From positions 1 through 64,000 of IMG/VR virus record IMGVR_UViG_3300022305_001387: a stretch of 64,000 nucleotides of DNA; one strand, given 5' to 3'. Position 1 is the first letter of the stretch. Each line of letters starts with the position of its first letter. The notes beneath the pieces are model-generated. The model saw only the letters and a list, made by a program, of their open reading frames with translations, was not told the origin of the DNA and ran no database searches. The DNA comes from a virus (Duplodnaviria > Heunggongvirae > Uroviricota > Caudoviricetes). Positions 5,811 through 49,040 of this stretch are shown piece by piece. The position numbers were made by a program, and so were the translations under genes.

Positions 5811-5834
5811 TTAATTACAATAAAAATAAAAGTT

Positions 5835-6095
5835 ATGACTAAGAAAGAAATTAAAAATGAAATTAACAAAGCGGTGTACATATATGCCGAATCATTAGGT
5901 TACGATATGTCAGACGATAATGACGGATCATGCGTAACATTCTCCAAACCCGATAGAAAAGATGCTTACGATTGTATCGAATACAGTCGTTCGTATCACG
6001 AAACGTACGTTGTAAATTGGTGCAGCAATGAATTAAAATCAGACGCAGATATAATCAACGAATTTGCAAAACAACAACAATTAAATTATCAATAA
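5835..6095 (+). CDS. hypothetical protein (86 aa)
   Basis: ORF preceded by AATAAAAATAAAAGTTATG. Confidence 0.5.
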   Translation: MTKKEIKNEINKAVYIYAESLGYDMSDDNDGSCVTFSKPDRKDAYDCIEYSRSYHETYVVNWCSNELKSDADIINEFAKQQQLNYQ

Positions 6096-6105
6096 AATAA
6101 GAGTT

Positions 6106-6351
6106 ATGAAATACATACTGACAACTAATAAAGATATTTACGAAGATTGTTATGGCTCTAAGGCGCTTAGACACAAAAAAGGTGCTAAAGTATCAATGAG
6201 CGAAAAGTACTTCAACGAATTAAAACAAAGTGGTACAGTTGAATTAATGTCAGGCTTCGGTGAATATATATCTACTGCTAAATACGCACTATCAGACTTC
6301 GAATCAGAAGTAACTGTCGAAAAACAAATTAATCAAAAAATAAAACTGTAA
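6106..6351 (+). CDS. hypothetical protein (81 aa)
   Basis: ORF preceded by AATAAGAGTTATG. Confidence 0.5.
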   Translation: MKYILTTNKDIYEDCYGSKALRHKKGAKVSMSEKYFNELKQSGTVELMSGFGEYISTAKYALSDFESEVTVEKQINQKIKL

Positions 6352-6357
6352 TAATTT

Positions 6358-6618
6358 ATGAACAAAGCTTTAATTACCACAGCATTTCAATTGTATGTAG
6401 ACACAGTTCCTATGGAAACAATGTCAGCAGATCATCCAGAATTTCACGATCTGTATTCCAAAGAGTGTCAACTATTCAATCTTCTCAGACAAATGGATTG
6501 GCAAGAATTAGAAGATTATAAATACAAAGTTAGAATCTATAATATCGATCATGGCATTTCAAACGAAAACAAGTGGTCTAAAGAAGATCTATATGAAGAC
6601 GAAGATCAAAATTATTAA
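6358..6618 (+). CDS. hypothetical protein (86 aa)
   Basis: ORF in track. Confidence 0.5.
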   Translation: MNKALITTAFQLYVDTVPMETMSADHPEFHDLYSKECQLFNLLRQMDWQELEDYKYKVRIYNIDHGISNENKWSKEDLYEDEDQNY

Positions 6619-6637
6619 TCAATAAAAAATAAAAGTT

Positions 6638-6807
6638 ATGAAGTTTCAAGAAAAAGGCAGCACTGCCAAAAAACATTTTCAAATTAGTTTAATCAAATCT
6701 ATTATTCGTATCTTCGCATGCGTATATCTTTGTTATGGAGATTATGTAGGAGCAGGTATTGTACTCGGTATTGCTGAGCTGCTTGGTATCTATGAAGAAA
6801 TTGCTTA
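6638..6807 (+). CDS. small hydrophobic protein (56 aa)
   Basis: Not in track (<60 aa); preceded by AAAAATAAAAGTTATG; hydrophobic stretch IIRIFACVYLCYGDYVGAGIVLGIAELLGI. Confidence 0.35.
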
Positions 6808-6835
6808 ATCAAATAATCAATAAAAAATAAAAGTT

Positions 6836-7084
6836 ATGAAAGTAAAATTAGAAATGTGCAAGTGCATCAAATGCGGTAATGATATGCCGCTCCTTCGTAA
6901 GATAAAATATGGTTATAAGAGTTGCATAAACTGTTCCACTGTTCAACCGGTTGGTGGAGTGCAAATCGCTAATCATAAAACAGGAAACGAGATACAAATC
7001 ATGCCAATGGAATTGGCGAATAGAATGAATACTCTAGCTTCAAGACAAGGGTACGGAGTTTGTTCTGGAATGAAACATAGTTAA
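6836..7084 (+). CDS. zinc-ribbon-like protein, paralog of 12501..12716
   Basis: CKCIKCGN...CINCS and shared ..HKTGNEIQIM.. with 12501 (..HKTADSIQII..). Confidence 0.5.
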   Translation: MKVKLEMCKCIKCGNDMPLLRKIKYGYKSCINCSTVQPVGGVQIANHKTGNEIQIMPMELANRMNTLASRQGYGVCSGMKHS

Positions 7085-7103
7085 TTAATAAAAAATAAAA
7101 GTT

Positions 7104-7358
7104 ATGAACGAAAAAGAAAAAACAATATTGACTGCTCTTGCAGTTTTGATAGGCTTGGCACTACTTTCAAGTATGACATCATGTATGTCTTCGAAAGACA
7201 TCTCAGGCAGAGATAGTTTAATTTCAGGTGCTAACCACAAATGCTCAATAAAAAGATCAATGAGATATTCCACATGGGAATATGCATCGCCTAATGTGCA
7301 GCTCATGATATCGCATAACAAATCTAATATGATTTTTGAAATAAATAAAAAGAAGTAA
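7104..7358 (+). CDS. putative lipoprotein / membrane protein
   Basis: N-terminus ILTALAVLIGLALLSSMTSC looks like a signal peptide with a lipobox-like Cys. Confidence 0.45.
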   Translation: MNEKEKTILTALAVLIGLALLSSMTSCMSSKDISGRDSLISGANHKCSIKRSMRYSTWEYASPNVQLMISHNKSNMIFEINKKK

Positions 7359-8409: not shown

Positions 8410-8496
8410 AAAAAACTTTTAACACTTATAAATTAGTTTTCTATAATCCAAATATTAGCTATATATTAGTCTTATAATTAAAAACAAATAAACGTT

Positions 8497-8775
8497 ATGA
8501 ACAAGAACACAAAACAAAGCTCAAAGAGCGTATCAAGCAATCGTCCAACATCTTACACAAAGTTGACGTACATTCAAAAAGTAAGTCGTATTAATCGTAA
8601 ACTTCGCACAGGAGACATCAGCCGTATTGCTGAAGCAACTGGCTACTCTACAACTCACGTATCAGACGTAGTTAGTGGTAAGTATTTCAACGACACCATC
8701 GTTAATCGTATCTACGATTTGACTCGTAATCGTGTATCAAACGCGGTTAAGTTGACGAAGATGGAGAATGCCTAA
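8497..8775 (+). CDS. putative HTH DNA-binding protein
   Basis: GDISRIAEATGYSTTHVSDVVSG resembles a helix-turn-helix. Confidence 0.45.
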   Translation: MNKNTKQSSKSVSSNRPTSYTKLTYIQKVSRINRKLRTGDISRIAEATGYSTTHVSDVVSGKYFNDTIVNRIYDLTRNRVSNAVKLTKMENA

Positions 8776-8819
8776 TAACAAAACATACTAACTGCTAGCG
8801 CATCGCAGCGCGGCACACA

Positions 8820-8883
8820 AGATCAGTCACCGGATTATGCTTTTCTAAGCTATCTTAAGACTGATCTTTTTTTATGTGCTCAC
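8820..8883 (+). terminator. possible hairpin terminator
   Basis: AGATCAGTC...GACTGATCT 9-bp stem (large loop) followed by TTTTTTT. Confidence 0.35.
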
Positions 8884-8989
8884 TTATACATGATAAAAAA
8901 TTCATATACACAACTGATTGATCGTAACAAATTTCAGCATATAATTGTTACGGAAATAATAGCTGCCAGATCAGTCAGGAAGCTCATGG

Positions 8990-9235
8990 CCAAAGCTTCG
9001 GATCTTACCTTATACATACATAGCCCCTGTCCCCTGTACGTACCCGCCTAGGCCCACGGCAACTGATTAAACACCAATAACTTATATATTCACTGGAAAT
9101 ATATGTGTAAAGCGTTGGTTCTCCCTGATATTTTTTTGAAAATAATTGCTTAAATATTTTTTTATGTCAAAAAATCGTCGTAGATTTCCTAAATAACAAC
9201 AAACAGACTACCTAACAATTAAAAAAAAACATAAT
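8990..9235 (+). promoter_or_regulatory. conserved intergenic promoter/5'UTR module, copy C
   Basis: CCTTATACATACATAGCCCCTGTCCCCTG, then TGTAAAGCGTTGGTTCTCCCTGATATTTTTTTGAAAATAATTGC...TGTCAAAAAATCGTCG...AAAAAAAACATAATATG. Confidence 0.5.
9008..9045. repeat. C-tract element (copy 2 of 2)
   Basis: CCTTATACATACATAGCCCCTGTCCCCTGTACGTACCCGCC; matches 4812-4840. Confidence 0.7.
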
Positions 9236-9592: not shown

Positions 9593-9644
9593 TATCTATC
9601 TCAATTCAAATCAAATCATAAAAAAAATAAACAAAATAAAAGTT

Positions 9645-10073
9645 ATGAAAAAATTAGAAATTATCAATTCAGAAAAAATCAATCAAGTAGAATTTATTTC
9701 AGATCGTAAAGGCGAATACAGAGCTATCGTTAAAGTGCAAGCGGGCTTCATGACAGTTGTAGACGATTTTGGTATTCAATGTAATTGGGAAAAACCACAA
9801 TGGAATTCTGCTATCGATGTATTTCGCAACTTTAAGAAAGGAGCATTACAAACTATCCAGTTTAAAGCTAAAGGTACTGATTCATGGTTGACTATATTCG
9901 CCAAATCTGGTAACAAAGTAAAGCTTATGGACTATCAGTTGTTTAAAGATATGGAAGTTGGTGACATCAATCAAAACTGGTCTAATACCAATTTATACAG
10001 TCAAAAAAATTATGGCTTATGTAACGCAAAAACATGGGCTGATAAAGCATTCGTTGTAAACAAGTCTAAATAA
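9645..10073 (+). CDS. hypothetical protein (142 aa)
   Basis: ORF preceded by AAAATAAAAGTTATG. Confidence 0.55.
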   Translation: MKKLEIINSEKINQVEFISDRKGEYRAIVKVQAGFMTVVDDFGIQCNWEKPQWNSAIDVFRNFKKGALQTIQFKAKGTDSWLTIFAKSGNKVKLMDYQLFKDMEVGDINQNWSNTNLYSQKNYGLCNAKTWADKAFVVNKSK

Positions 10074-10100
10074 TTAATCAATAAAAATAAAATTAAAGTT

Positions 10101-10310
10101 ATGCAAAAAAACAATCCTTACATCGACAGTAACAACATTGACAGATCACAAGAGATCGAAGCGATGTTTCAACCAACGTTAGAAGACATTAAAAATGATC
10201 CTGAGTTTTATGCTGAATTGGTTAACGATCTTATGTATCACGTTAAATATGGTATAGGCATTACACAGATTATGAAAATGGCAATGGATACATTAGAAAT
10301 GCCAATATAA
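10101..10310 (+). CDS. hypothetical protein (69 aa)
   Basis: ORF preceded by AAATTAAAGTTATG. Confidence 0.5.
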   Translation: MQKNNPYIDSNNIDRSQEIEAMFQPTLEDIKNDPEFYAELVNDLMYHVKYGIGITQIMKMAMDTLEMPI

Positions 10311-10588: not shown

Positions 10589-10652
10589 TAAAAACACTAA
10601 TATGAATCACTATCAAATCACCACTTTTATCAAAACACAAAAAAATAAAGTT

Positions 10653-11033
10653 ATGACACAAGATTACGATCAGACACTAACAAAACAAATGGCAAAAGAA
10701 GTAGTTGGCGATGGACAAACACCAAATCTATGGTTCGTTACATCGGGTCCTTATGTGGCTGTTCATGATGGAGATATATCGTACGACTTTGAATTGATCG
10801 AAGGATATAATTCAGATAAAGATACTCATACATATGGTCCTTACACAAGTTACGAAGCGGCTTTAAGATGTTACAACAAAATAGAATTAAGCTTTGATTA
10901 TGGAGTTGGACAAGCATTCATTGAAGATAGAGAATGCGGTACAGTTACAGAGAAATGGTTGGTTAAAAGAGTGAGAACAGAATATATAGAAAGCGAATAC
11001 GATAATTCAAAAAGATTCTACAAAAATAATTAA
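10653..11033 (+). CDS. hypothetical protein
   Basis: Track ORF starts at 10581; the conserved AAAAAATAAAGTTATG context sits at the internal ATG 10653. Confidence 0.5.
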   Translation: MTQDYDQTLTKQMAKEVVGDGQTPNLWFVTSGPYVAVHDGDISYDFELIEGYNSDKDTHTYGPYTSYEAALRCYNKIELSFDYGVGQAFIEDRECGTVTEKWLVKRVRTEYIESEYDNSKRFYKNN

Positions 11034-11195: not shown

Positions 11196-11240
11196 ACAAC
11201 AATAATAAAAATAATTAATCACATAAAAAAAACAAAAGTT

Positions 11241-11531
11241 ATGAAACAAAAAAAATTAACATTCCAACAAGTGGTAACTCGCTTAGAAAAAGCTGAGATT
11301 CCATGCACAGTTAAACGTTTCGAATACGACGACGAAATAACATACTCAATTGAATTTGGCTTTAATTGGCCAGAAGAGTTGCTATCTGAGGTCGATAAAG
11401 CATTCGATGCATACGGCGATAAGGTGCCTCATTATATAGAGTTTTGTGCTAGTTCTGATGGTGGTGAAATGACTGCTAAGAAGATGATCGCTGGTGGTCC
11501 TAAAGACTACATCGGCTACAACAAATGGTAA
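11241..11531 (+). CDS. hypothetical protein (96 aa)
   Basis: ORF preceded by AACAAAAGTTATG. Confidence 0.5.
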   Translation: MKQKKLTFQQVVTRLEKAEIPCTVKRFEYDDEITYSIEFGFNWPEELLSEVDKAFDAYGDKVPHYIEFCASSDGGEMTAKKMIAGGPKDYIGYNKW

Positions 11532-11565
11532 ACAAAAACAAATTAATAAATTAAAAACAAAAGTT

Positions 11566-11925
11566 ATGAAAGCATTATTGATCGACTCAAAAAACAAAGT
11601 AGTAAAACAAATCGAAATCGGTGAACACTTCACTGAAATTTCAAAAGCAATAGATTGCGAAACATTTTCAGCTCCTCACATTTTAGAGAATGAAGACACA
11701 CTATATTGTGACGACGAAGGATTGCTGAAAGGTCCTCAACATTTCTTCTTACTCGATACTTATCCTCAGCCAATTGCAGGAAATGGTTTAATTTTAGGCT
11801 GCGACGATGAAGGAGATAGCATCGATGTTAAAACTACTCTCGATGAATTAATTAGTAGAATAACATTCATGAATATTGACGATGCATACAATTGGTCGTT
11901 TAATCAATCTTATCAATTTAACTAA
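11566..11925 (+). CDS. hypothetical protein
   Basis: Track ORF starts at 11494; conserved AAACAAAAGTTATG at internal ATG 11566. Confidence 0.5.
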   Translation: MKALLIDSKNKVVKQIEIGEHFTEISKAIDCETFSAPHILENEDTLYCDDEGLLKGPQHFFLLDTYPQPIAGNGLILGCDDEGDSIDVKTTLDELISRITFMNIDDAYNWSFNQSYQFN

Positions 11926-12480: not shown

Positions 12481-12500
12481 ACATAAAAAAAATAAAAGTT

Positions 12501-12716
12501 ATGCAAATAGAAAGAAAATGTAAAGTATGTCAAGAAGTTATACACCCACTTCGAGTGAAAATGGGATATTCAACTACATGTGTTAAACATTCAACTGCTG
12601 AGAGATACACAGGAGTTGTTGTAGCAGATCATAAAACAGCAGACTCTATTCAAATCATTAAAGATCCAGAAGTTGGTAGAAAATTGATGGAACTTAGTAA
12701 TGTTTATGATCATTAA
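12501..12716 (+). CDS. zinc-ribbon-like protein, paralog of 6836..7084
   Basis: CKVCQ...C.KHS; shared HKT..IQI motif. Confidence 0.5.
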   Translation: MQIERKCKVCQEVIHPLRVKMGYSTTCVKHSTAERYTGVVVADHKTADSIQIIKDPEVGRKLMELSNVYDH

Positions 12717-12931: not shown

Positions 12932-12953
12932 TTTAAAAAATAATACATAAGTT

Positions 12954-13304
12954 ATGCAAATGCAACGAATATTGTACGGAGTACTTTTTGGTGTAATAGC
13001 GCAAGTAATTACTTTCTTGCAATTACAAGGCCAAATGAAGTATAGTATATTAAAAAACAATACATGGTTTTTAGTATTGATGGGAATGCCTATATCTTTT
13101 TTATTCCTAATGTCAGTGAAAAATTTCATACTAGCTTTTAATGGAGAAATTTGGCCTTCAAGAATTATAGGATTCGGAATAGGAGTAATCATATTTACCA
13201 TTATGTCTGAAATTCTATTTAAAGAAGTTATGACATTAAAAACAATAACGTGTTTGTTTCTGTCAATGTTGATTATATTAATTCAAATTTTTTGGAAAAA
13301 TTAA
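12954..13304 (+). CDS. multi-pass membrane protein (116 aa)
   Basis: Preceded by ATACATAAGTTATG; 3-4 hydrophobic segments. Confidence 0.5.
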   Translation: MQMQRILYGVLFGVIAQVITFLQLQGQMKYSILKNNTWFLVLMGMPISFLFLMSVKNFILAFNGEIWPSRIIGFGIGVIIFTIMSEILFKEVMTLKTITCLFLSMLIILIQIFWKN

Positions 13305-22333: not shown

Positions 22334-22388
22334 TAATTAAATTTATCCAAGATAAAAATATTGATTAAGTTTATCTAAACAAATAGTT

Positions 22389-22661
22389 ATGGCAGACTTC
22401 TCAAAACAATATTGCGACTTATACGATCCAGAAATGCCACACGATTTCGATATAGAAAAAGTGGCCGAAAAGTTAGACAACGATTATTACCTATCTTTTA
22501 TTTGCGAAGGCTTTGGCTTCAGTGCTATTGGCAAAGATAATGAAGGTCAAATAATACTTTATTTTAACAGTGATAATGATTTACCTCATGTTGGATGGGT
22601 AAAATATCAAGATTTTATTAATGAACATACAAAAAATCTCAATAACGAGACTCCTTCGTAA
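22389..22661 (+). CDS. hypothetical protein (90 aa)
   Basis: ORF preceded by AAATAGTTATG. Confidence 0.5.
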   Translation: MADFSKQYCDLYDPEMPHDFDIEKVAEKLDNDYYLSFICEGFGFSAIGKDNEGQIILYFNSDNDLPHVGWVKYQDFINEHTKNLNNETPS

Positions 22662-26106: not shown

Positions 26107-26271
26107 ATGGAATCATATGACATCTATTTTATTTCTATAATGTGTTTATTAGGAGTACTTCTAAACATTAGTATTAAAGATGAAGATATGAGATTGGGAA
26201 TAAACTCTATCATAATATTGTATACACTTGGATATATAACCCATATCATAGTTCAATACTCATTCACATAG
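26107..26271 (+). CDS. small membrane protein (54 aa)
   Basis: Two hydrophobic segments; directly downstream of the SPFH gene (possible membrane partner). Confidence 0.35.
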   Translation: MESYDIYFISIMCLLGVLLNISIKDEDMRLGINSIIILYTLGYITHIIVQYSFT

Positions 26272-26284
26272 AAAATACAAAGTT

Positions 26285-26560
26285 ATGCAAAGACAAGAAA
26301 AGATGGATTACAAATGGGATATTCAATACATGGATATAGATCCAGATAGTGGAGATACATCTGATCCCAAAACTGTGGCAACCACCAAATTTCCCAACTA
26401 CGCAAATATAATTCTCGATGCTTTTTGCAATCAAGACGAGAATCCAAACAGACATTATTTTATAGTCAAATGTATCAATCATTCTATAAAAGAGACTCAG
26501 TATAAACACGCCAAATGGTTTGATAACCATCAGCCATCATGGGATACAGGAACCAGATAA
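26285..26560 (+). CDS. hypothetical protein, paralog family A (with 30458..30664)
   Basis: Shared DIDPDSGDTS...DENPNRHYF vs DIDPDTGDVS...DDEPNRMYY. Confidence 0.5.
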   Translation: MQRQEKMDYKWDIQYMDIDPDSGDTSDPKTVATTKFPNYANIILDAFCNQDENPNRHYFIVKCINHSIKETQYKHAKWFDNHQPSWDTGTR

Positions 26561-28177: not shown

Positions 28178-28443
28178 CAGAATATGAAGTAGAAACATGG
28201 TCGTCGTTCCATCACGACGAAGAAAGGATACTAAAAGCACAAGAAGAAGCAGAACGCTTATACAGTACGTTCTTGCCTTTAGCAAAAGGCGATACGTTAG
28301 ACGAGGTAAAGCACAACACCAAGCAGTGCGCCACAGCCGCAGCACGCATGTTGAAGGGACAGTATCTACAGCTGTGTACTGTAAAAGGACCGGCCAAATT
28401 AACCCATTGGGATCTAGTAAAACAAGAAATAGAAAAGTTATGA
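28174..28443 (+). CDS. hypothetical protein, paralog family B
   Basis: See above; ATGA overlap with the next gene. Confidence 0.5.
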   Translation: MTEYEVETWSSFHHDEERILKAQEEAERLYSTFLPLAKGDTLDEVKHNTKQCATAAARMLKGQYLQLCTVKGPAKLTHWDLVKQEIEKL

Positions 28444-30151: not shown

Positions 30152-30474
30152 ATAAAGAACAACAGCAGATTGTTGATAAGGTATATGAAGAGTATGAGAG
30201 GCTTTGTCAATCACAGGAGCTTATTGATTATGACGATAAAGAGACCTTTATCAAAAGTATTAAGAATTATAGTATGGTTGCAAAGCGGTGGGGATTAAAG
30301 ATTGAGGAAAGAGAGTTGAGTGAAGAAGAAAGATACGACTTATATGAAGAAAAGTATATGTTTACTGAAACGATTGAGGAAAGGGGAATTGATTATAAAT
30401 ATAAAATACCAACCAAACTAATCACAGTAACATACGAAGGTAAAACAATAGAGAGTTATGATAGGAATAGATAG
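30148..30474 (+). CDS. hypothetical protein (108 aa)
   Basis: ATGA overlap. Confidence 0.5.
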   Translation: MNKEQQQIVDKVYEEYERLCQSQELIDYDDKETFIKSIKNYSMVAKRWGLKIEERELSEEERYDLYEEKYMFTETIEERGIDYKYKIPTKLITVTYEGKTIESYDRNR

Positions 30475-31667: not shown

Positions 31668-31736
31668 TCACACCAGATCCAATGCCCTATTACCTTTCAT
31701 CTAATTCTATTTAAAATAAAAAAAACAATTAAAGTT

Positions 31737-32627
31737 ATGAACAAGAACATCATCCTTTCAGCTCTTCAATCTCAGTTACAAACAGTTAAAGCAGACGCTA
31801 TCGCCCATGAGAACGACGTCTACACGCCAGCATTGGCAAAGCTTACAAGCAAGATCAAAGTTTATTTCGATCAGTACGTTGCTCAGAACATTCACGACAT
31901 CTCTATTGCTTCTGATCGTATCACTATCCAACCTAATGACGATACGTCTTACGGAAACACTATCAGCATTGATTATCGTGGCAGTTGGAGAAACGACGGA
32001 GCCTATTTCGAAACTTCTTCTTACCGTCCAGATCTAAAGTCTAACGAAGACAATACCAATACCGTCCGCTATTACAAAACTTTGGCTGCTATTGCTAACA
32101 CATTCGATTTGATCTGCGAGCAGTACAAGACCAAATGGTTGACTGCATTTGCCAAGATCGAATCAGCCAAGTCTGACAAGTACTCTGAGATCTACAAGAT
32201 CGAAAGAGAGATCAGAACCTGCGAGGCTGAGATTGCTGAATTAGAGAAAGAGAAGTATAACCAATCTGGCATTGAATTGACGTTGAAGCCTACGGCCAAT
32301 TACGATTCTTGCTATGACAACAACGAGTGCGTGTATACCAAGAAGATGGTTGAGCACCATATCAAGGCTCATTACGGTCGTAGCAAATACGATTACGCTT
32401 ACATCAATTCGTTCAAGGTTGTTTCATTCCCTAAAGCCAAGCACGGCAAGGTTATATTAGAATGGAAAGGTGGAGCTGATGACACTAAGACACGTACAGT
32501 TGAGCTGAACAAACAACGTTACGCTGAGTTCATCTCAGAAGTACACAACTGGCAAACTAAAGGTGCTGTTGAAAGAGAAGAGAGCATCGACGAAAGAATC
32601 GCTAGATACAATAAAGTAGACGCCTAA
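31737..32627 (+). CDS. hypothetical protein (296 aa)
   Basis: Preceded by AATTAAAGTTATG. Confidence 0.6.
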   Translation: MNKNIILSALQSQLQTVKADAIAHENDVYTPALAKLTSKIKVYFDQYVAQNIHDISIASDRITIQPNDDTSYGNTISIDYRGSWRNDGAYFETSSYRPDLKSNEDNTNTVRYYKTLAAIANTFDLICEQYKTKWLTAFAKIESAKSDKYSEIYKIEREIRTCEAEIAELEKEKYNQSGIELTLKPTANYDSCYDNNECVYTKKMVEHHIKAHYGRSKYDYAYINSFKVVSFPKAKHGKVILEWKGGADDTKTRTVELNKQRYAEFISEVHNWQTKGAVEREESIDERIARYNKVDA

Positions 32628-32775
32628 TCTAAATCACTAAACAATTAAACACATATGTTATGTAACACACATATAACCATACCATAATATGAGGTTAGAC
32701 TTCCTACCAAAAAGTTAATCTTCTCTATATCACCAGAATCAATTAATTTTATCTATAATCAAAACAATAAAAGTT

Positions 32776-33609
32776 ATGTCACAATCAGTATCGCCTAAGG
32801 CACAATCGTTTAAAGCAGGAGCAATCAATTCAATCAGCATGGAAGTAGCCAAGCAACAGGCACCAGCCATCTTCGCTACCGAACCCGCATCGTATATCAA
32901 CCAGAACAGGTATCACTTCACACCTACCTTCGAGATCATAGACATGATGAAGGATATGGGTTATGCATTAACCGGAGCCAAGCAGAGCAAGACTAAGATA
33001 CCTCTGCGTCATAATCACGGAGTACACATCGTAGAGTTCCAGCATCCTGATCTGTATGTAAAGGACAGCACTAACAACGAGATAGAAGCCAGACCTACCA
33101 TCGTTATGGTTAACTCATCAGATGGCTCTAGACCGTTTGACTTTCAGATGGGTATGTTCAGATTGGTATGTAGTAATGGCCTAATCGTTAAGAGCAAAGA
33201 CTTAGGTGGCTTCAAAGAGAGACACACCAAATATAACTTCACTGATCTCAAGGCCATGATCAGCAGCAAAGTAGATTCATTACCTAAGACCATAGAGAAA
33301 ATTAATACATGGACTGGCATAGAGATGGATGCCAAGACCAGACACGCATTCGCAGTAGAAGCTCTAGCTCTCAGATTAGGCAATGATCGTCAAGCAGAGA
33401 CCTACGAGATTCATTCAATCCTGTCCGCTAAACGTAAAGAAGACGAGCCAAACAATCTATGGTGCACATTCAATCGTGTACAAGAGAACCTGATCAAAGG
33501 CGGCTTTCAAATCAACGAAAGGCAAGCACGCCCTATCACCAACCCTTGGCAAGACCTACAGTTGAATCAAAGCCTGTGGACATTAGCTGAAAAGTACGAA
33601 GCCTGTTAG
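32776..33609 (+). CDS. DUF932-like protein
   Basis: VNSSDGSRPFDFQMGMFRLVCSNGLIV resembles the ..HDGS..F....G.FRLVCSNG motif I associate with DUF932 proteins of phages/ICEs (recollection, not a search). Confidence 0.45.
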   Translation: MSQSVSPKAQSFKAGAINSISMEVAKQQAPAIFATEPASYINQNRYHFTPTFEIIDMMKDMGYALTGAKQSKTKIPLRHNHGVHIVEFQHPDLYVKDSTNNEIEARPTIVMVNSSDGSRPFDFQMGMFRLVCSNGLIVKSKDLGGFKERHTKYNFTDLKAMISSKVDSLPKTIEKINTWTGIEMDAKTRHAFAVEALALRLGNDRQAETYEIHSILSAKRKEDEPNNLWCTFNRVQENLIKGGFQINERQARPITNPWQDLQLNQSLWTLAEKYEAC

Positions 33610-33770: not shown

Positions 33771-33884
33771 AATAATTTATTTACGTAAATATAAAAAACA
33801 AGTTATGCAAATCATCGAATCACAAATTCAAATCTTATCGGGTTATCCCAAGCCAATCAGTATCATTCATCTAAATTAAAGACT

Positions 33885-34402: not shown

Positions 34403-34418
34403 ACCAAAAAAACAAGTT

Positions 34419-34682
34419 ATGACACCGAGACAATACAACGAGTTAAACAGACAAGCAGACGTGATAGAGCAACACACGCACTCCGAGATCGAGCGCCAGT
34501 TGCAAGAGATGCAAGCCAACAAGAAATATATAGCTATGGAATTATGGCCTCCACCGGGACAAAATAGAATTCAGCCTCTTGGCAATGAGATGCGCATCAA
34601 CGAAGGCAGAGCCGGCAAGTGGACAGGAGTCAGCGAAGCGTTCTACGACACTATGGCCAAGAAATATGACTCACGAGGCTAA
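34419..34682 (+). CDS. hypothetical protein
   Basis: Track ORF 34122 re-started at ATG 34419 after AAACAAGTTATG; the upstream part overlaps 33998..34402. Confidence 0.45.
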   Translation: MTPRQYNELNRQADVIEQHTHSEIERQLQEMQANKKYIAMELWPPPGQNRIQPLGNEMRINEGRAGKWTGVSEAFYDTMAKKYDSRG

Positions 34683-36994: not shown

Positions 36995-37010
36995 CTAAAA
37001 AATAAAAGTT

Positions 37011-37113
37011 ATGAGAAATTTTGATAAAGAATTTAAAGATTGGAAATCTGAGATGATAGGGTTTTTATTAGCTGGTTTCATCTTAGGAGTTTGTTTTGGA
37101 ATATTAATATAGA
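37011..37113 (+). CDS. small hydrophobic peptide (33 aa)
   Basis: After AAAAAATAAAAGTTATG; IGFLLAGFILGVCFGILI. Confidence 0.3.
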
Positions 37114-37481: not shown

Positions 37482-37502
37482 CTAATCAAAAAATAAAAGT
37501 TT

Positions 37503-37718
37503 ATGACAATTGAATTTATCAAAGAAACAAAAGCAAATGGCGACCAATTGTATTACACTAAAGTCGATGACATGTACATTAGTTCAACACTATCGTTTAA
37601 CATAGACGAAGCAAAAGCAATGTACGATAACGTAGTAAAAAACAACGGTAAGTACGTTACTATAGAAGTATTAGAATCAGTAGAGATAGATGATGCAACT
37701 GGTGGTGAAGTATTCTAA
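37503..37718 (+). CDS. hypothetical protein (71 aa)
   Basis: After AAAAATAAAAGTTTATG. Confidence 0.5.
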   Translation: MTIEFIKETKANGDQLYYTKVDDMYISSTLSFNIDEAKAMYDNVVKNNGKYVTIEVLESVEIDDATGGEVF

Positions 37719-38100: not shown

Positions 38101-38148
38101 GAGTATCTTTATTAATAAATATAAATCAATATTAAAAAACAACAAGTT

Positions 38149-38397
38149 ATGCACAAAACAATTTCATTAGTAGCAATCGCTATTGCATTAATCGCTTTAA
38201 TCGGATGGGCAGCACAAGGCTGCGTAGACACGAAACATAAATATGAGATCGAATATGGCCACGGCAAGTGGGCTTTATCTGATTTCACAGACAGCTTCGT
38301 ATTAGACGGCAGTATCAGATACATTAACGAACACGGAGATTCCGTTCGTAGATACGGTACCTTTTCAGTGAGTAATAATAGAGACTACCGAAAATAA
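38149..38397 (+). CDS. small secreted/membrane protein
   Basis: Signal-like N-terminus ISLVAIAIALIALIGWAAQGC. Confidence 0.5.
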   Translation: MHKTISLVAIAIALIALIGWAAQGCVDTKHKYEIEYGHGKWALSDFTDSFVLDGSIRYINEHGDSVRRYGTFSVSNNRDYRK

Positions 38398-38472
38398 TAC
38401 ATGTTATGCACTTGAGAATTAATCTTTCCTCTCTTCTCTTTTTTTATTACTTTTATATATAAACAATAAGTT

Positions 38473-38718
38473 ATGGCAAAAGCAATATTAGAATTTGATC
38501 TTAATGATTCAGATGATGCAATGGCTCATATGAGAGCTGTCAAGTCTCAAGATATGGCACTTGTATTATGGGAAATGGCATATAATGTTAAAAAACGAAT
38601 ACTGAGTCAATCAGAGACAGAAAAGCTAGATGCTTATGATGCAGTTGAAAAAGTATTTGAGACGCTTTGGGAAGAGATGGGAAACCATGGTATCGTTTTA
38701 GATGATTTAATATGTTAA
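38473..38718 (+). CDS. hypothetical protein (81 aa)
   Basis: After AACAATAAGTTATG. Confidence 0.5.
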   Translation: MAKAILEFDLNDSDDAMAHMRAVKSQDMALVLWEMAYNVKKRILSQSETEKLDAYDAVEKVFETLWEEMGNHGIVLDDLIC

Positions 38719-38728
38719 ATTAATTATT

Positions 38729-39196
38729 ATGGAATATATATACAAATGCCCGAATTGTGGAGAATCTAAAAATCTTCATTTTAATTATGATTATTCAAAA
38801 CAACACAGACCTATACTAGAAGTTATGTGTAATTTTTGTGGTGAATATTTTGATGGTAATATACCCGTGTCTGAATTGATAGCTAGATATGATGAGGATA
38901 GTAGATTATCTACCTATCTAGAAAAAGAAGCCAACATATCTGATGACTTTCAAATTGGACCAGATGGTGCTTATGAGCATACAGAATGGGATAACACTTT
39001 GATGGATGGATTACATGATGAAGAATTTCCAGATTTTCAAACGAAACCAGGATTTGTTGAAAGACGAATGAAACTAGGTAAAGAAATCAATGATAGAGTT
39101 TGGGATCAAATATATGAATCATACAATGGCATATCTGATCTACATAATTTTGTAGATTGGTTAAAAGCTAATTATCTTGCACCTGAAATAATATAG
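38729..39196 (+). CDS. zinc-binding hypothetical protein
   Basis: CPNCGES...CNFCGE Cys pairs. Confidence 0.5.
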   Translation: MEYIYKCPNCGESKNLHFNYDYSKQHRPILEVMCNFCGEYFDGNIPVSELIARYDEDSRLSTYLEKEANISDDFQIGPDGAYEHTEWDNTLMDGLHDEEFPDFQTKPGFVERRMKLGKEINDRVWDQIYESYNGISDLHNFVDWLKANYLAPEII

Positions 39197-39198
39197 TT

Positions 39199-39771
39199 AT
39201 GAAAATAGACAGAAAAGAATTAAAGTGGTTTTTAGATAATATCAGACGTAAAGCGGAAAGAGACAATGAAGAAGTTACTGATGAAATGCTTGCAGATAAG
39301 TTAGCACATTATATGGAAGTTAATCCAGGTTGTATTGATATGAATGAGAGCAATCGTTCAGGCCGATATTATTATTCTACTGTCGGATATGGTGTGTTTA
39401 GTTTGCTTGGCGAAAGATATAGAATGGGTAGAGTTGAAGTATTTGATAAACAAAATGATAGCGGTTATCAGGTAGATGAGGGTGTGTATTGTATGCCATT
39501 TGAAGCGGCAAACCAATTTGAGCAGTTCATAGAGACTATAGAAACTGACTTACCAATCAATATAGAGATGGGAACTATGGCTCAATGTCGTGCGGCGGTT
39601 GCTGAAGAACTTGGAATACCTGAAGATAAGTTAAATGATTCAGATACTAAGAAAGCATATTATAGTAAAAAGAATGATGAAGAGGCTCAGAAACTTGGAT
39701 ATAAAGATTTCGATGATCAACTTGCTAATAGTAGTTTAGGCGACTTAAGATTAAATAAAAAACAAGATTAA
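39199..39771 (+). CDS. hypothetical protein (190 aa)
   Basis: ORF in track. Confidence 0.5.
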   Translation: MKIDRKELKWFLDNIRRKAERDNEEVTDEMLADKLAHYMEVNPGCIDMNESNRSGRYYYSTVGYGVFSLLGERYRMGRVEVFDKQNDSGYQVDEGVYCMPFEAANQFEQFIETIETDLPINIEMGTMAQCRAAVAEELGIPEDKLNDSDTKKAYYSKKNDEEAQKLGYKDFDDQLANSSLGDLRLNKKQD

Positions 39772-39779: not shown

Positions 39780-39968
39780 ATGGAACAGACACAAAATTAT
39801 GATAATGTAATTACCGAGGTATTTGAAGCTAAATTTCTTGGTGAGTTAAGAACTTCTATGCGAGAGTTTTTAGAGAAATGGGCTGAACTGCCACACAGCG
39901 GATCTGTTGGCTCACCGAAGTATATTGATGGAATATGGCAAGTAGAGGCTAAAAGATTTTTAAAATAA
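39780..39968 (+). CDS. hypothetical protein (62 aa)
   Basis: ORF in track. Confidence 0.45.
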   Translation: MEQTQNYDNVITEVFEAKFLGELRTSMREFLEKWAELPHSGSVGSPKYIDGIWQVEAKRFLK

Positions 39969-39982
39969 TATAATAAAAGGTT

Positions 39983-40585
39983 ATGAATAAAAAAGAACAA
40001 GAGTTTGTCGACTTCATAAAACGACAATGTAAGATATATGGTGTTAAACTAATAATGAAAGATAAAAAACACTTGACTCTTACCGGTAATATAAAATGCT
40101 CAGGTTATTTTGATGATGGAGATGATATGAAACCAATATTAGCAGTAGCTACTAATAGAAAAGATTGGATAGAAATACTAGCTCATGAATATTGTCACTT
40201 GACGCAATGGGTTGCAAAGATAAATTTATGGGATAAAGCTGGTACCAGTTTATCATATGTAGATTCTTGGTTGTCAGGTAAAAAAGTTAGAAACATAAAG
40301 TATCATTTAGGTATTGCTAGAGATTTGGAATTAGATAACGAGAGACGTACTGCTAAGTTATTAAAAGCTTGGGATTTGGGAATAGACATAGAGCATTACA
40401 TTAGGAAAGCAAACGCATACGTACAATTCTACAACTATATGTATAAAACAAGAAAATGGTGTAGTCCTAAAAATTCTCCTTATACTAATGAGCGCCTTAT
40501 TGCACAGATGTCGAAGAGGTTCAATATGAGATATAAGAAAATGAGTAAACGAGTAGAAAAAATATTTACACAAGAAAAAATTTAA
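39983..40585 (+). CDS. putative HExxH metallopeptidase-like protein (ImmA/IrrE-like motif)
   Basis: EILAHEYCHLTQW; second HEY.H protein in the window (cf. 3479). Confidence 0.4.
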   Translation: MNKKEQEFVDFIKRQCKIYGVKLIMKDKKHLTLTGNIKCSGYFDDGDDMKPILAVATNRKDWIEILAHEYCHLTQWVAKINLWDKAGTSLSYVDSWLSGKKVRNIKYHLGIARDLELDNERRTAKLLKAWDLGIDIEHYIRKANAYVQFYNYMYKTRKWCSPKNSPYTNERLIAQMSKRFNMRYKKMSKRVEKIFTQEKI

Positions 40586-45731: not shown

Positions 45732-46355
45732 ATGAAACTTATACTCTCAATAATCGCCTTTTTATTTGCGTCTTATGCTAATGCTAGTGTTGATACAAGT
45801 AGAGAGGCGCTTATTAGAGTGTTTAAAAAAGAAAAGGAGTTAGAGCTATGGATAAAAAGCGGAAACAAATTTACTTTATACAAAAAATACAAGGTATGCA
45901 AATTAAGTGGAAAATTTGGACCAAAAAGGGAAGAAGGCGATCTTCAAGTTCCCGAGGGAGTTTATGAAGTAAATATATTAAATCCACATAGTAATTATAA
46001 AAAATCCATAGGCATTAATTATCCAAACAAATCTGATAGTATCTTAAGCCAATATGCACATAAAGGAGGATTAATATTCATTCATGGTAATTGCGTATCT
46101 GTAGGATGCATAGCAATAGGAGATCAAAATATAGAAGAGCTATACAAATTAGTTTCTAAGTGCAATAAAACCTATGTGCATATATTTCCAGCAAAATTTG
46201 ATGAATCGAGTGATTATATTGAAAAAAATCTAGTAGAAAAACCTGAATTGACTGAATTCGAATTAGACTTATATCAAGTGTACTTGTATTTTAATCAGCT
46301 TAAAATCCTACCGAAAATTGAAATATCTGATGAGGGCAGATATATCATAGAATAA
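45732..46355 (+). CDS. L,D-transpeptidase (YkuD)-like secreted protein
   Basis: Signal peptide; IFIHGNCVSVGCIAIG resembles the YkuD catalytic H...SxGC motif. Confidence 0.5.
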   Translation: MKLILSIIAFLFASYANASVDTSREALIRVFKKEKELELWIKSGNKFTLYKKYKVCKLSGKFGPKREEGDLQVPEGVYEVNILNPHSNYKKSIGINYPNKSDSILSQYAHKGGLIFIHGNCVSVGCIAIGDQNIEELYKLVSKCNKTYVHIFPAKFDESSDYIEKNLVEKPELTEFELDLYQVYLYFNQLKILPKIEISDEGRYIIE

Positions 46356-46428
46356 TCTTCTACTTTAAAATTATATTGAATTTAAATCACGATATTTATT
46401 ACTTTACTGGTAATAAATTTATATTTTC

Positions 46429-47469
46429 ATGAAAGATTTTAATTTACACAAATTCTTAAGAGACAATCCTTTAACAAAGCAAAAACAGACTTTGAAAAAA
46501 GGAAAAATAAACGAATCGTTCGAAGGTTTCGGCGGATACAGAGATATATCGCCTATACACGAAGCTCCTATTCAAACAAAAGATTTTAATTGGGATCCTA
46601 CTGATACTGCTGATTATGATGAGCAGTCACAACCAAATAAGTGGATCGCTGATATCGATCGTATGCAACCTGAATATGGAGATTGGAAAGCTACTTGGGA
46701 ACACCCAGGAATTATTGTTTGGTCAAACGCTGATATTCCTGATGCGGTAGTTGTTGCAACTCCAGGATGGGACGGTCAAGGCACTCCAGTTGAATTTCAA
46801 TCTAATGCAGGTTCATCTCAAATGTTAAAAGTTTTGGATCAAGATCAATTCGCGACTTTTAAAGATTATCTTAATGCAATTAGACCTTATTTAGATATGG
46901 TACTTGATGCTAATGTTAATCCTACAAGTACTGACTATGAGACTAGCGATATTAAAGCTCCAGGAATGGGAGAATTTCAAGGTTTACATGAAGGTAAAGA
47001 AGATATTCTTAATAAGATTGAACGTTGGTTACACACTACAACTGAACCTTATGCTGATTACGAATTTGATGGAGATGATACAGTTACTCTTTATGATGAA
47101 GATAACAACGAAATAGAATCATTATCAGTATCTAGAGATATGGGAATAAGAAGCAAAAATTATATGGGAACTCAATACGATTCATCTGAAGACATGGCTG
47201 TAGATATGGTTAAGAAAGGTATAAGGGAAAATGATTCTTTTATCCAAGCACAAAGAGATGCTGATAGTGTGACATCTGATAAAGGTTGGCAATATGATGA
47301 TGAAGAAGAGATGCCAAGTAGAATTGAAGGTCTTGTAAACCTTAGAGAATTAGCTAAATTTGCAGAAGCTGTTATGGCAATTGCTCAAGATTTAGACGAT
47401 GAAGGCTTTGATTCAATTGATATTAAAAAGTTGTTGAAAGACAAACTTGATGATATGATTATTGGATAA
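46429..47469 (+). CDS. acidic hypothetical protein (346 aa)
   Basis: D/E-rich; followed by a strong terminator. Confidence 0.55.
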   Translation: MKDFNLHKFLRDNPLTKQKQTLKKGKINESFEGFGGYRDISPIHEAPIQTKDFNWDPTDTADYDEQSQPNKWIADIDRMQPEYGDWKATWEHPGIIVWSNADIPDAVVVATPGWDGQGTPVEFQSNAGSSQMLKVLDQDQFATFKDYLNAIRPYLDMVLDANVNPTSTDYETSDIKAPGMGEFQGLHEGKEDILNKIERWLHTTTEPYADYEFDGDDTVTLYDEDNNEIESLSVSRDMGIRSKNYMGTQYDSSEDMAVDMVKKGIRENDSFIQAQRDADSVTSDKGWQYDDEEEMPSRIEGLVNLRELAKFAEAVMAIAQDLDDEGFDSIDIKKLLKDKLDDMIIG

Positions 47470-47493
47470 TATATCATTGTACATAAAAAATAT

Positions 47494-47516
47494 AAGCCCC
47501 TTTTTGGGGCTTTTTT
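47494..47516 (+). terminator. rho-independent terminator
   Basis: AAGCCCC-TTTTT-GGGGCTT followed by TTTTT. Confidence 0.75.
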
Positions 47517-47540
47517 ATTATATTTAATTAAATAAAAGTT

Positions 47541-47834
47541 ATGCAACCATATTCAGTTTATTATTTACATTTTCAAGATGGCAGAGAAGTTGAATCCAAT
47601 TGGAATAGATGCCAAGATTTTGTCTGTTGTGTTATGGCAGATAGTCAACAGCATGCTATAGATCAAACAACATATATAGCTCTTAATCAAAAAAATGCCA
47701 GGCATATAAAAGTATTAGGCGTTGGACATTGTAAAGAAGAGTGGACAAAAGAACCTCAACCAATGAGAACTGATGAGCAAGAAATGCGCACTCAATTAGA
47801 CTCCATGTTTGAAAGAATACACGCAAAAAAGTAA
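47541..47834 (+). CDS. hypothetical protein (97 aa)
   Basis: After AAATAAAAGTTATG. Confidence 0.5.
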   Translation: MQPYSVYYLHFQDGREVESNWNRCQDFVCCVMADSQQHAIDQTTYIALNQKNARHIKVLGVGHCKEEWTKEPQPMRTDEQEMRTQLDSMFERIHAKK

Positions 47835-47867
47835 GAATTTACATATTTATAATAAAACAAAAACGTT

Positions 47868-49040
47868 ATGAGTTTACTTTCGATGACAGATTACTATCCG
47901 GAGTTTCTTCGCTATTATGCGATGGCAAAAACACAACAAGAAGAATGCAACTTAGGTCTTATACCGCACGCAGAATCTTCAATTCCAGACGATTTAATGA
48001 AACACGTAGAACTCTACGATGTAGTTGAAAGAAAATATGCTGGATTTTCTCAGATCGTTAACGATATATTCTATGGTTGGACAGAGGATCATCCTTACTG
48101 GAAGCGTATGCAAGCCGGTTTAGCGAGTGGACCAAGAGAAGAGATTGCTCCTAAATGGAATGGTAAAAGAACTCAATTAAAAACAGAAGATTGGTTCTTT
48201 TTATTTTTAGTGCATCGATTAACAGGTTCAGCTATTAACTATGCCAAAAAACCAAGCGGATATCACAATAGTATTCTATTTGATCTTCACGAATGTGAGA
48301 ATATTCCACAAATGGTAGAAAAAATAAAAAATAGAATTTCTCCATTTTATACATCAGTTGGATATCAGATTGCCGCATTTCCAAAACCTCAAGGATCATA
48401 TAAAAGAGGGGGAGATTATTTCATTTGTGAATGGGTTCCTCAATTGGCAAAAGACGTTTTAGCCTTCTTAGAAGAAGGAGGAACTAAAAAAGACTTTAGA
48501 CAAGTGGGAGATTTCATGTTTGCATGGAATAAAGAAAGAGGATTTAGAGCATTTAAGTTTCAATATTCCGCTTTTATTGCTGATATTGCAGATTGGTTTC
48601 CTCAATATATAAACAAAGAGAGTCCATTCTATTATGGTACAAATGCTATAGAGTGTTTAAATTATTTAGCAAAAAAAATCAAAGGTGTGCCTCAAGAAGT
48701 ATTTTTAGACATGATAACTAAAAAAATATATGAAGACACTGGAGCTTATCCTTATAATAGCGAGGACGTTACCTGTGATTTTATTCGTTATGTAGAAAAT
48801 TATGTAAAACCAGGAAATGATTATAGACATTTGGATTACGATAATCTTTGGAATAGCAGTAATATAAAAGATCATCCATACGGTAGACAAAAAGCTATGT
48901 TAGATCTAGGGCTAGTTCCCACATTTAAAAATATAACTGATCATCCATCTGATGATAAGATTATTAAATCTGTTAATGTAACACCTGAGCAATATAAAGA
49001 AAAAGTAAAAGAGTTTAATTTTAATTATCAAGTACAATGA
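47868..49040 (+). CDS. large hypothetical enzyme-like protein (390 aa)
   Basis: After AACGTTATG; ATGA-coupled to the next gene. Confidence 0.6.
   Translation: MSLLSMTDYYPEFLRYYAMAKTQQEECNLGLIPHAESSIPDDLMKHVELYDVVERKYAGFSQIVNDIFYGWTEDHPYWKRMQAGLASGPREEIAPKWNGKRTQLKTEDWFFLFLVHRLTGSAINYAKKPSGYHNSILFDLHECENIPQMVEKIKNRISPFYTSVGYQIAAFPKPQGSYKRGGDYFICEWVPQLAKDVLAFLEEGGTKKDFRQVGDFMFAWNKERGFRAFKFQYSAFIADIADWFPQYINKESPFYYGTNAIECLNYLAKKIKGVPQEVFLDMITKKIYEDTGAYPYNSEDVTCDFIRYVENYVKPGNDYRHLDYDNLWNSSNIKDHPYGRQKAMLDLGLVPTFKNITDHPSDDKIIKSVNVTPEQYKEKVKEFNFNYQVQ

Follow-up and report, generated by a model that had tools for sequence, protein, structure and literature searches.

A recurrent A-tract and GTT start-codon context in an immuto-like myophage as a candidate clade-specific translation initiation region

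We analyzed a 64,000-nucleotide (nt) stretch of viral DNA (IMG/VR record IMGVR_UViG_3300022305_001387, positions 1 to 64,000; referred to below as the window), in which many start codons stand directly behind the same short element, an A-rich tract followed by GTT. Genes occupy the + strand up to ~51.6 kb and the − strand from 51.7 to 64 kb; the DNA is AT-rich (GC 28–41%), and 38% of the + strand is A. Between 5.7 and 13.1 kb, successive genes carry ...AATAAAAGTT immediately 5' of ATG. The initial annotation of the window had placed the element at ~35 genes between positions 5815 and 47870, and had listed 20 starts. Each of the 20 is an ATG that directly follows the motif or a variant close to it, and the motif is indeed recurrent. 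The count was slightly generous, since relaxed matrix scoring yielded 31–32 motif-bearing starts, and the range, although it holds the listed sites, leaves out starts 504, 2183, and 5025, which lie upstream of it.

The word AAGTTATG occurs 26 times on the + strand of the window and once on the − strand; the corresponding counts for TAAAAGTTATG are nine and zero. When up to one mismatch was allowed, AATAAAAGTTATG gave 15 matches, all of them on the + strand and all at starts of open reading frames (ORFs), whereas the number expected by dinucleotide shuffling was 0.63. A simple gene model gave 98 + strand genes; GTT occupied positions −3 to −1 of 25 of their predicted starts (25.5%) and preceded 19 of 1163 other + strand ATGs (1.6%; odds ratio (OR) 20.6, p=3.7e-18), and thus an equal frequency of the motif away from start codons, which had been named as the outcome that would speak against it, was not seen. 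A 16-nt matrix spanning −16 to −1, trained on the 25 GTT starts, was used for the scan that the initial annotation had proposed as a check, at a threshold of ≥16 bits. On the + strand, 28 sites were found, 23 of which were followed by ATG and one by GTG (ORF 504-857), while one more was the GTTT variant at 37503; neither of the two − strand sites was followed by ATG. The scan bears out the association with starts but is partly circular, because the matrix was made from the same 25 starts; independent evidence is provided by the shuffle test and by the clade sample described below. GTT always directly adjoins the start codon, also where this is GTG (504), and GTTATG with an A-rich 5' side is nearly always the first ATG of its ORF, an in-frame stop lying a few codons before it. 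An A-rich coding strand followed by ATG might yield such a pattern by chance or base composition, and both the A content of the + strand and the generic occurrence of A-rich leaders in AT-rich genomes speak for this; the probability of this explanation is, however, practically nil, as it is already refuted by the shuffle test, by the comparison with non-start ATGs, and by relatives collected independently of the motif, in whose 1515 distinct start contexts GTT was found 328 times and the next triplet, AAT, 126 times.

The consensus of the leader is A(−13..−9) T/A(−8) AAA(A/G)(−7..−4) G(−3) U(−2) U(−1) AUG A. In the motif class, the frequency of A was 0.72–0.92 at −13 to −10 and 0.80–0.88 at −7 to −4 (0.80 at −6), with T at 0.48 at −8, followed by GTT. 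Non-motif starts had A at 0.64–0.68 at −13 to −10, A at −3 in 56% of cases, and T at −1 in 58%. Overall, no upstream base is more strongly conserved than T (U) at −1, which is present at 68% of all + strand starts and at 100% of the motif class. G was found at −3 in 28% of all starts but in 3% of non-GTT genes; GTT therefore defines a discrete class rather than a graded preference. Shine-Dalgarno (SD)-like tetramers (GGAG, GAGG, AGGA, AAGG) were present between −20 and −4 in none of the 31 motif genes, in agreement with the earlier statement that SD sequences are missing, and in two of 72 others. G did not exceed 12% at any position from −30 to −4, and motif leaders contained a mean of 0.55 G between −25 and −4, so that G at −3 is practically the sole G. 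An upstream ATG within 25 nt was found in 0/31 motif genes versus 9/72 others. Folded over −30 to +30, the motif class had a mean minimum free energy of −1.6 kcal/mol, compared with −3.25 kcal/mol at other starts and −6.7 kcal/mol in random 60-mers (p=2e-12), which makes motif leaders the least structured RNA of the window in this comparison. The gap upstream of motif genes is almost always at least 10 nt (median 33), and the motif is missing where a gene overlaps its upstream neighbor or directly adjoins it (ATGA, TAATG); in the array at 5.8–7.4 kb, the motif lies in spacers of 10–27 nt and repeats every 200–300 nt.

Two further features of the spacers were observed. Over the last 30 nt before the start, 13/31 motif spacers, versus 19/72 others, have TAA stops in each of the three frames (e.g., TAATCAATAAAAAATAAAAGTT; the spacers at 6618-6640, 6808-6838, and 7084-7106 are among them). 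Whatever its reading frame, an incoming ribosome would terminate just 5' of the start, and this could aid termination-reinitiation or could be a mere result of TAAAA-richness. A second start context, AAC(C/T)TAAAAAAGATTAATT-ATG, is nearly identical over ~20 nt, has ATT at −3 to −1, and is present in four to six copies in a module at 26–36 kb (28769-28798, 29895-29924, 35080-35109, and 35654-35683, and more weakly 26753-26782 and 31360-31389). The paralogues that start at 28440 (GTT type) and 35100 (second, ATT type) both begin with MTSIEW.

A near-identity DNA search with the gene for a protein of 1649 amino acids (aa) and a tblastn search with a 458-aa ORF gave no match among isolated phages. 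With no near-identical DNA in isolated phages, the phage is therefore a novel myophage. The nearest isolate is Flavobacterium phage vB_FspM_immuto (immuto below; 160 kb, host Flavobacterium sp. LMO8), to which the baseplate wedge protein is 45% identical at the aa level, and which also provided the best match for a DUF932-type protein and for part of the tail spike. Pfam matches among all 109 window ORFs included the CHU_C Type IX secretion domain, Fib_succ_major, OmpA, and PD40. Judging from the kinship with immuto and the Type IX secretion domain, the host likely belongs to Bacteroidota, and probably to Flavobacteriia.

Much of the leader is familiar from this host group. F. johnsoniae ribosomes ignore SD sequences, and A at −12/−13, −6, and −3, low structure, and few nearby AUGs favor initiation (PMC6847099). 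With GeneMarkS-2, TAAAAA was detected as a core motif in each of the 30 Flavobacterium genomes examined (PMC6028130), and TAAAA has been taken as the ribosome-binding site of Flavobacterium (PMC8565351). In initiation complexes of F. johnsoniae 70S ribosomes, the purine at position −3, which may be A or G, stacks on 16S G693; mFjoh_4413, an mRNA that is translated well, has G there (PMC13000457). Like the A-tract and TAAAA, a purine at −3 is therefore nothing unusual for the host group. When the exact 15-mer AAAATAAAAGTTATG was scanned in one genome per species, it was often found in Bacteroidota loci at the first ATG of ordinary genes, which by our reading of the translated N-termini would be rpsF-like (L180), rpmB-like (L211), thioredoxin-like (L150), SusD-like, and response regulator genes; in non-Bacteroidota loci, it rarely stood at an ORF start. 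A TAnnTTTG −7 box lies 10–25 nt upstream in many Bacteroidota loci, and the 15-mer is therefore placed in the 5' untranslated region. Other genes of the 15-mer loci had GTT at −3 to −1 in 3/140 cases in Bacteroidota, in 1/45 in Flavobacteriales, and in 5/242 elsewhere. From this background in host-group genes it follows that the GTT triplet is no general host preference.

The triplet has a different standing among relatives of the phage. A pattern scan of viral contigs revealed many with strand-specific arrays of AAAGTTATG, several of which encode relatives of window proteins; in contig L017, for example, AAGTTATG occurs 16 times within 14.7 kb, and L045 has 10 copies. Since these contigs had been chosen by the motif, 80 contigs were instead fetched by homology, through phosphoesterases 56–84% identical to that of the window. 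In this motif-independent sample, 428 of the 2021 predicted starts (21%) had GTT, which was by far the commonest triplet; AAT followed at 8%. Among the 1515 distinct contexts, G at −3 was part of GTT in 328 of 444 cases, while A at −3 preceded many dinucleotides, and the commonest 12-mer was AAAATAAAAGTT; the element is thus much more specific than a generic AT-rich leader, in line with the earlier claim. GTT is also the top triplet of immuto, at 27 of 225 starts (12%; deposited annotation, first 150 kb). By these sequence comparisons, the GTT triplet appears to be a trait of the immuto-like myophage clade and not to be host-derived. The label "phage-specific" given to the element initially thus fits its GTT part, more precisely as clade-specific, but not the A-tract with TAAAA, which is an ordinary Flavobacterium non-SD signal.

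GTT is found mainly on early/middle-type small genes and is kept on their orthologues. It was retained at orthologues (L045, L245, L246) of genes 5025, 8497, 10101, 12501, 22389, 26285, 31737, and 32776, and the upstream flank had diverged at several of these, e.g., 5025 (motif kept in L045 while the flank diverges), 12501, 22389, and 31737. GTT status was conserved between N-terminally aligned orthologue pairs (33/62 vs. 10/55; OR 5.1, p=1e-4), and turnover runs in both directions, as seen at 12954, 23315, and 26773. Many immuto structural genes stand behind a box of the form (C/G)TATTTATAA(A/T)AAA. The T4 late promoter is TATAAATA, and by this likeness the box looks like a late promoter. The description of the motif has to be changed in a further respect: it is class-restricted, being depleted on late/structural genes and absent from translationally coupled genes.

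Boxes of the type (C/G)(T/A)TATTTATAA(A/T)AAA were seen 15–35 nt upstream of structural genes, in the window including the gene for the 1649-aa tail-spike-like protein. Window sites are at 15273-15290, 24251-24275, and 47841-47857 on the + strand and, on the − strand, upstream of starts 52158 and 55856. The immuto genes with such a box (L243, 119–150 kb) encode portal, sheath, tube, and tail-spike proteins. Genes behind a late-like box mostly lack the GTT context.

The fixed register, the short spacers, the initiation-like properties of the leader, its position 3' of promoter boxes, and the lack of a promoter consensus together point to a translation initiation region (TIR). We consider, with moderate confidence, that the motif is a cis-acting, clade-specific TIR for independently initiated early/middle genes and not a promoter. 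The initial annotation had allowed for either a promoter-proximal or a translation-initiation signal; the latter role fits every test run, while a promoter is disfavored by the fixed register, the packed arrays, and the absence of a −7 match. For a subset of genes, the element would be the TIR, transcribed as 5' leader or as intercistronic spacer. SD-blind Bacteroidia ribosomes would start there de novo at genes uncoupled from the upstream gene, and coupled genes would manage without the motif. Extrapolating from published work, 30S subunits would be recruited and positioned by the unstructured A-tract (TAAAA, A at −12/−13), the purine at −3, in this case the sole G of the leader, would stack on 16S G693, and U at −1, possibly together with U at −2, would extend pairing with A37 (and A38) of the initiator tRNA. 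In E. coli, U at −1 pairs with A37 of tRNAfMet, and translation is boosted (PMC10018350).

Several observations weigh against a TIR as the whole explanation. The motif is present in 0/11 baseplate/structural genes of the − strand (51.7–64 kb), and the immuto genes for the portal, major capsid, sheath, tube, tail-spike, and terminase proteins are without GTT. In the 80 relatives, GTT was found in 6/101 late-box genes versus 324/1433 others (OR 0.22, p=1.5e-5). Putative late/structural genes are usually the most highly translated, yet they avoid GTT. GTT stood at −3 to −1 of 3/140 Bacteroidota genes (2%), a small sample that does not come from the true host, and its counts in the unrelated Flavobacterium phage 11b and Cellulophaga phage phi38:1 were 2/65 and 4/76, respectively, with ATT as the top triplet of 11b (14/65). 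In the EF-Tu TIR of F. johnsoniae, a change of A at −3 to G cuts expression by ~70% (PMC6847099). A plain TIR does not explain why GUU is fixed as a unit, why it is restricted to the clade, and why late genes avoid it. GTT as a host-wide optimum was considered and rejected, as host genes and unrelated Flavobacteriia phages have no excess of it. What a plain TIR does not explain may also reflect a peculiarity of the true host.

If the motif were a promoter or a promoter core, read by the host RNA polymerase or a phage-modified one, transcription would start a few bases 5' of ATG and the mRNAs would be leaderless or nearly so. Recurrence 5' of many genes, as in phage early promoters, the AT-richness of the motif, and the fact that 13% of predicted F. 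johnsoniae transcripts have leaders of ≤10 nt (PMC6847099) are in line with such a role, which we nevertheless hold to be very unlikely. Promoters of Bacteroidota sigma-A combine TTTG at −33 with TAnnTTTG at −7, the latter 4–5 nt 5' of the transcription start. The motif TAAAAGTT mismatches three of the four TTTG positions of this −7 element in the required register. Only three TAHHTTTG sites lie within 80 nt of + strand starts, none of them at the arrayed motif genes, and sigma-70-type matches at 1–20 kb show no excess (94 vs. 108 expected). Moreover, the motif repeats every 200–300 nt in packed arrays without terminators (a scan of 1–20 kb found no + strand terminator-like site across 5.8–13 kb), precedes a GTG start in exact register as well, and lies downstream of recognizable promoter boxes in host genes and in immuto. 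At 66.8–76.3 kb of immuto (L242 16800-26300), at least 15 small ORFs each follow a nearly invariant 30-nt cassette and often have a GC hairpin after them. The cassette reads TTCnTAT(A/C)TTTAGGTATCAATAATTAAAAC (TTCnTATATTTAGGTATCAATAATTAAAAC), and ~8–10 variable bases separate it from ATG; its TAnnTTTAG resembles the Bacteroidota −7 box, and the cassettes are probably the early promoter set of that phage. Since GTT is present in only some of them, it can be separated from the promoter box; in the transcript, its position would be ~20 nt from the 5' end. A matrix made from 15 of these cassettes gave only weak + strand matches in the window (≤14.3 bits) and none in the 5.8–13 kb array; two such matches, at 38439 and 47510, lie ~30 nt upstream of motif genes 38473 and 47541. 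That an upstream element of 16–25 nt is conserved in exact register would speak for a leader. No RNA polymerase or sigma factor was found among Pfam matches of the 109 ORFs or PHROGs matches of the 20 largest proteins.

What a plain TIR leaves unexplained could be accounted for if AAAGUU-AUG were the dedicated word of the clade, either as an operator or cleavage site for a phage factor or through six-base pairing with the initiator tRNA, by which phage mRNAs would outcompete those of the host on SD-blind ribosomes; we regard this as conceivable but unlikely. Nucleotides 34–39 of E. coli tRNAfMet read CAUAAC, to which GUUAUG is complementary; the six-base interaction is speculative, because C39 is normally base-paired in the anticodon stem. 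An operator for a phage trans-acting factor (an RNA-binding repressor or activator, or an endoribonuclease) would add temporal control of early/middle genes on top of TIR function, as the counterpart of T4 RegA or RegB in a host without SD sequences. It would suit a triplet that behaves as a unit, with TT after most G at −3 but many different dinucleotides after A, that is enriched in the clade (12–25% vs. 2–5% in hosts and unrelated Flavobacteriia phages), and that is scarce on late-box genes, but it is also doubtful: the Pfam matches of the 109 window ORFs (a partial genome, with most ORFs without a family) contain no RegA, RegB, sigma-factor, or RNA-binding family, the PHROGs matches of the 20 largest proteins contain none of these either, and a unit-like triplet can also arise by cassette copying. 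Such copying, namely the spread of an ancestral leader cassette among small accessory genes by duplication and recombination, with GTT no better than ATT or AAT, would make the triplet a historical by-product. The near-identical spacers of 22–24 nt at 6638, 6836, and 7104, longer spacer words held in common (TTAATCAATAAAAAATAAAAGTT), small-ORF insertions and deletions that distinguish the gene content of the window from that of L045, exchange between GTT and ATT or AAT in orthologues and paralogues (e.g., 28440 vs. 35100), and the preference of phage 11b for another triplet all agree with this. However, GTT persists on orthologues at 60–85% aa identity whose upstream flanks have diverged, and it is the top triplet in the 80 contigs, with phosphoesterase identities of only 56–84%; these two facts indicate selection rather than recent copying. 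An element of ~16–25 nt with no stem-loop is, in addition, a poor recombination substrate, and the by-product explanation is rather improbable.

Repeated elements of other kinds were seen in two further phages. The − strand of L017 (IMGVR_UViG_3300046003_006680) carries, at 2.3–12.2 kb, ~12 copies of a 37-nt cassette, TTCGTATATTnnnGTATAAATAAAAAGAAAAAGTT-ATG, one per small gene, in which a CGTATATT box, an exact T4-late-like TATAAATA, and the AAAGTT-ATG context are joined. In phi38:1 (L327), many − strand genes at 11–33 kb have upstream a different repeated word, (A)ACACTATCAAAAA, at a variable distance from ATG, which is presumably that phage's own promoter or leader motif.

A non-SD, A-rich, Kozak-like initiation region is already known from Bacteroidia, and the leader has in common with it the missing SD sequence, the A peak at −13 to −10, TAAAA at −8 to −4, the purine at −3, low structure, and the lack of a near upstream AUG. 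The host region prefers A at −3 and has GTT at ~2% of starts, whereas the motif has a fixed G−3 U−2 U−1 on 25% of genes; TAAAA lies 3 nt from the start here, compared with a GeneMarkS-2 spacer of ~7 nt in Flavobacterium (PMC6028130). The strong conservation of U at −1 recalls the quadruplet U−1:A37 pairing of E. coli and chloroplasts, where the published effect is subtle; in Bacteroidia, such pairing would be an extension by analogy. As in the eukaryotic Kozak context, a purine at −3 is the key upstream determinant, but the system is bacterial and does not scan, and the remaining consensus positions are unrelated. RegB of T4 cleaves GGAG in early TIRs, and T4 RegA operators overlap early start codons. 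The motif resembles these sites in being a short word in the initiation regions of one temporal gene class and not of late genes, but the word differs. Promoter-early stem-loop (PeSL) cassettes combine an early promoter with a stable stem-loop in hyperplastic regions of T4-type phages, and the by-product explanation assumes a spread like theirs. Like them, the motif is a short intergenic element repeated beside many small novel ORFs in a myophage accessory region; unlike them, it has no stem-loop and no promoter consensus, and it stands in register with the start codon. In limited literature searches, we found no description of a GUU-AUG unit that is present on a fifth of the genes of a phage clade and avoided by late genes, and nothing relevant on the motif itself or on promoter or TIR motifs of Flavobacterium phages.

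The motif can serve as a start-site annotation rule for these phages, and three or four starts of the window are corrected by it (Table 1). The proposal that it marks true starts, some at internal ATGs, was supported by homologue alignments for 10653, where the alignment of the L045 orthologue begins at residue 25 of ORF 10581-11033, and for 28440, where the alignment of a homologue begins at residue 82 of ORF 28197-28826 and the N-terminus MTSIE is shared with gene 35100. Support is weaker for 34419, where a 45-aa local match (47%) runs from residue 98 of ORF 34122 and residue 36 of the L045 ORF; the adjacent upstream ORF ends at 34402. The sequence before 37503 reads AAAAGTTTATG.

Table 1. 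Motif-bearing starts in the window, with matrix scores and corrected start codons
Element and start codon	Coordinates	Strand	Product (aa)	Score (bits)	Remarks
motif AAATAAAAAATAAGTT + GTG	488..506	+	117	21.7	ORF 504-857; only instance with a GTG start
motif + ATG 2183	2167..2185	+	359	18.9	GTT in both aligned orthologues in relatives
motif + ATG 5025	5009..5027	+	261	21.6	phrog_1617; GTT in 5/5 orthologues
motif + ATG 5835	5819..5837	+	86	23.2	
variant AAGAGTT + ATG 6106	6090..6108	+	81	18.6	
motif + ATG 6638	6622..6640	+	56	24.6	19-nt spacer after upstream stop
motif + ATG 6836	6820..6838	+	82	24.6	
motif + ATG 7104	7088..7106	+	84	24.6	
variant AAACGTT + ATG 8497	8481..8499	+	92	19.4	CGTT kept in orthologues
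motif + ATG 9645	9629..9647	+	142	22.0	
motif + ATG 10101	10085..10103	+	69	21.6	
motif + internal ATG 10653	10637..10655	+	126	17.7	re-annotated start of ORF 10581-11033
motif + ATG 11241	11225..11243	+	96	23.8	
motif + ATG 11566	11550..11568	+	119	20.3	supersedes GTG 11494 of the mechanical ORF list
motif + ATG 12501	12485..12503	+	71	25.7	best score of the window; L045 orthologue has AAAGTT
variant CATAAGTT + ATG 12954	12938..12956	+	116	17.5	orthologues without GTT (turnover)
weak AATAGTT + ATG 22389	22373..22391	+	90	13.7	
motif ACAAAGTT + ATG 26285	26269..26287	+	91	14.5	GTT in 3/3 orthologues
motif + internal ATG 28440	28424..28442	+	128	15.4	ATGA overlap with upstream ORF
weak AGAGAGTT + ATG 30458	30442..30460	+	68	13.8	
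motif + ATG 31737	31721..31739	+	296	19.9	GTT kept in L245 and L246, flank diverged
motif + ATG 32776	32760..32778	+	277	20.0	phrog_12094; immuto homologue annotated DUF932; kept in L245 and L246
motif + ATG 33805	33789..33807	+	24	19.1	uncertain gene
motif AACAAGTT + internal ATG 34419	34403..34421	+	87	12.8	
motif + ATG 37011	36995..37013	+	33	22.1	uncertain gene; adjoins tRNA-like 3' end; same arrangement in L081
variant AAAAGTTT + ATG 37503	37487..37505	+	71	11.7 in register, 18.1 shifted one base	adjoins tRNA
ACAAGTT + ATG 38149	38133..38151	+	82	16.8	
ATAAGTT + ATG 38473	38457..38475	+	81	18.4	
weak ATATAGTT + ATG 39199	39183..39201	+	190	10.7	
variant AAAAGGTT + ATG 39983	39967..39985	+	200	14.3	GGTT, a common variant in relatives
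motif + ATG 47541	47525..47543	+	97	18.6	3' of terminator-like GGGCTTTTTT
variant AAAACGTT (CGTT) + ATG 47868	47852..47870	+	390	17.4	

Other features of the window were noted. Its ORFs include host-envelope-type domains unusual for a virus (CHU_C sorting, OmpA, OMP beta-barrel, PD40, Fib_succ_major, YkuD L,D-transpeptidase, and Band-7/SPFH), as well as a UvdE UV endonuclease and a SegE-like GIY-YIG homing endonuclease. An Rfam search of the window gave three tRNA-like matches only, and none to cis-regulatory families. At 36878-37482, three long tRNA-like genes (~118, 106, and 89 nt) share the acceptor and T-arm, AGTCAG(A/G)...GGTTCGA(A/T)TCCT...CTGACTAC. Those at 37122-37227 and 37393-37481 are called by Rfam, and ARAGORN calls only 37393-37482 (tRNA-Ile, anticodon AAT); the one at 36878-36995 is called by neither. 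They may be tRNAs with insertions or introns, or with a long variable arm. The relatively GC-rich 160-nt spacer at 37229-37392 has no Rfam match. A 460-nt non-coding gap at 8776-9235 opens with a strong hairpin and T-run (~8820-8875), which the simple terminator scan missed, and contains a GC-rich stretch at ~9020-9060 (CCCCTGTCCCCTGTACGTACCCGCCTAGGCCCACGG) in a region of 30% GC. The sequence TATAATATGGCA (TAA stop, T, ATG GCA) occurs three times (20240-20255, 21027-21042, and 21742-21757) and separates the tandem genes 15299-20248, 20250-21035, 21037-21750, and 21752-22333. The junctions at 20250, 21037, and 21752 were considered as a third signal and rejected, being attributed to tandem paralogues with TAA-T-ATG junctions; genes 20250 and 21037 match the same L245 ORF and are thus paralogues, and the repeats look like tandem duplication rather than a signal.

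How Bacteroidia choose start codons without SD sequences is still being worked out, and the clade offers a natural data set for this question: at 328 of the 1515 contexts of the relatives, one gene class uses one sharp context, an A-tract with G−3 U−2 U−1, that is unlike the host average. Motif leaders may serve as compact, strong TIRs for Bacteroidota engineering. Interest in the element would rise if a factor or extended tRNA pairing were demonstrated; if a phage factor does read the triplet, the motif would represent a new mode of temporal translational control.

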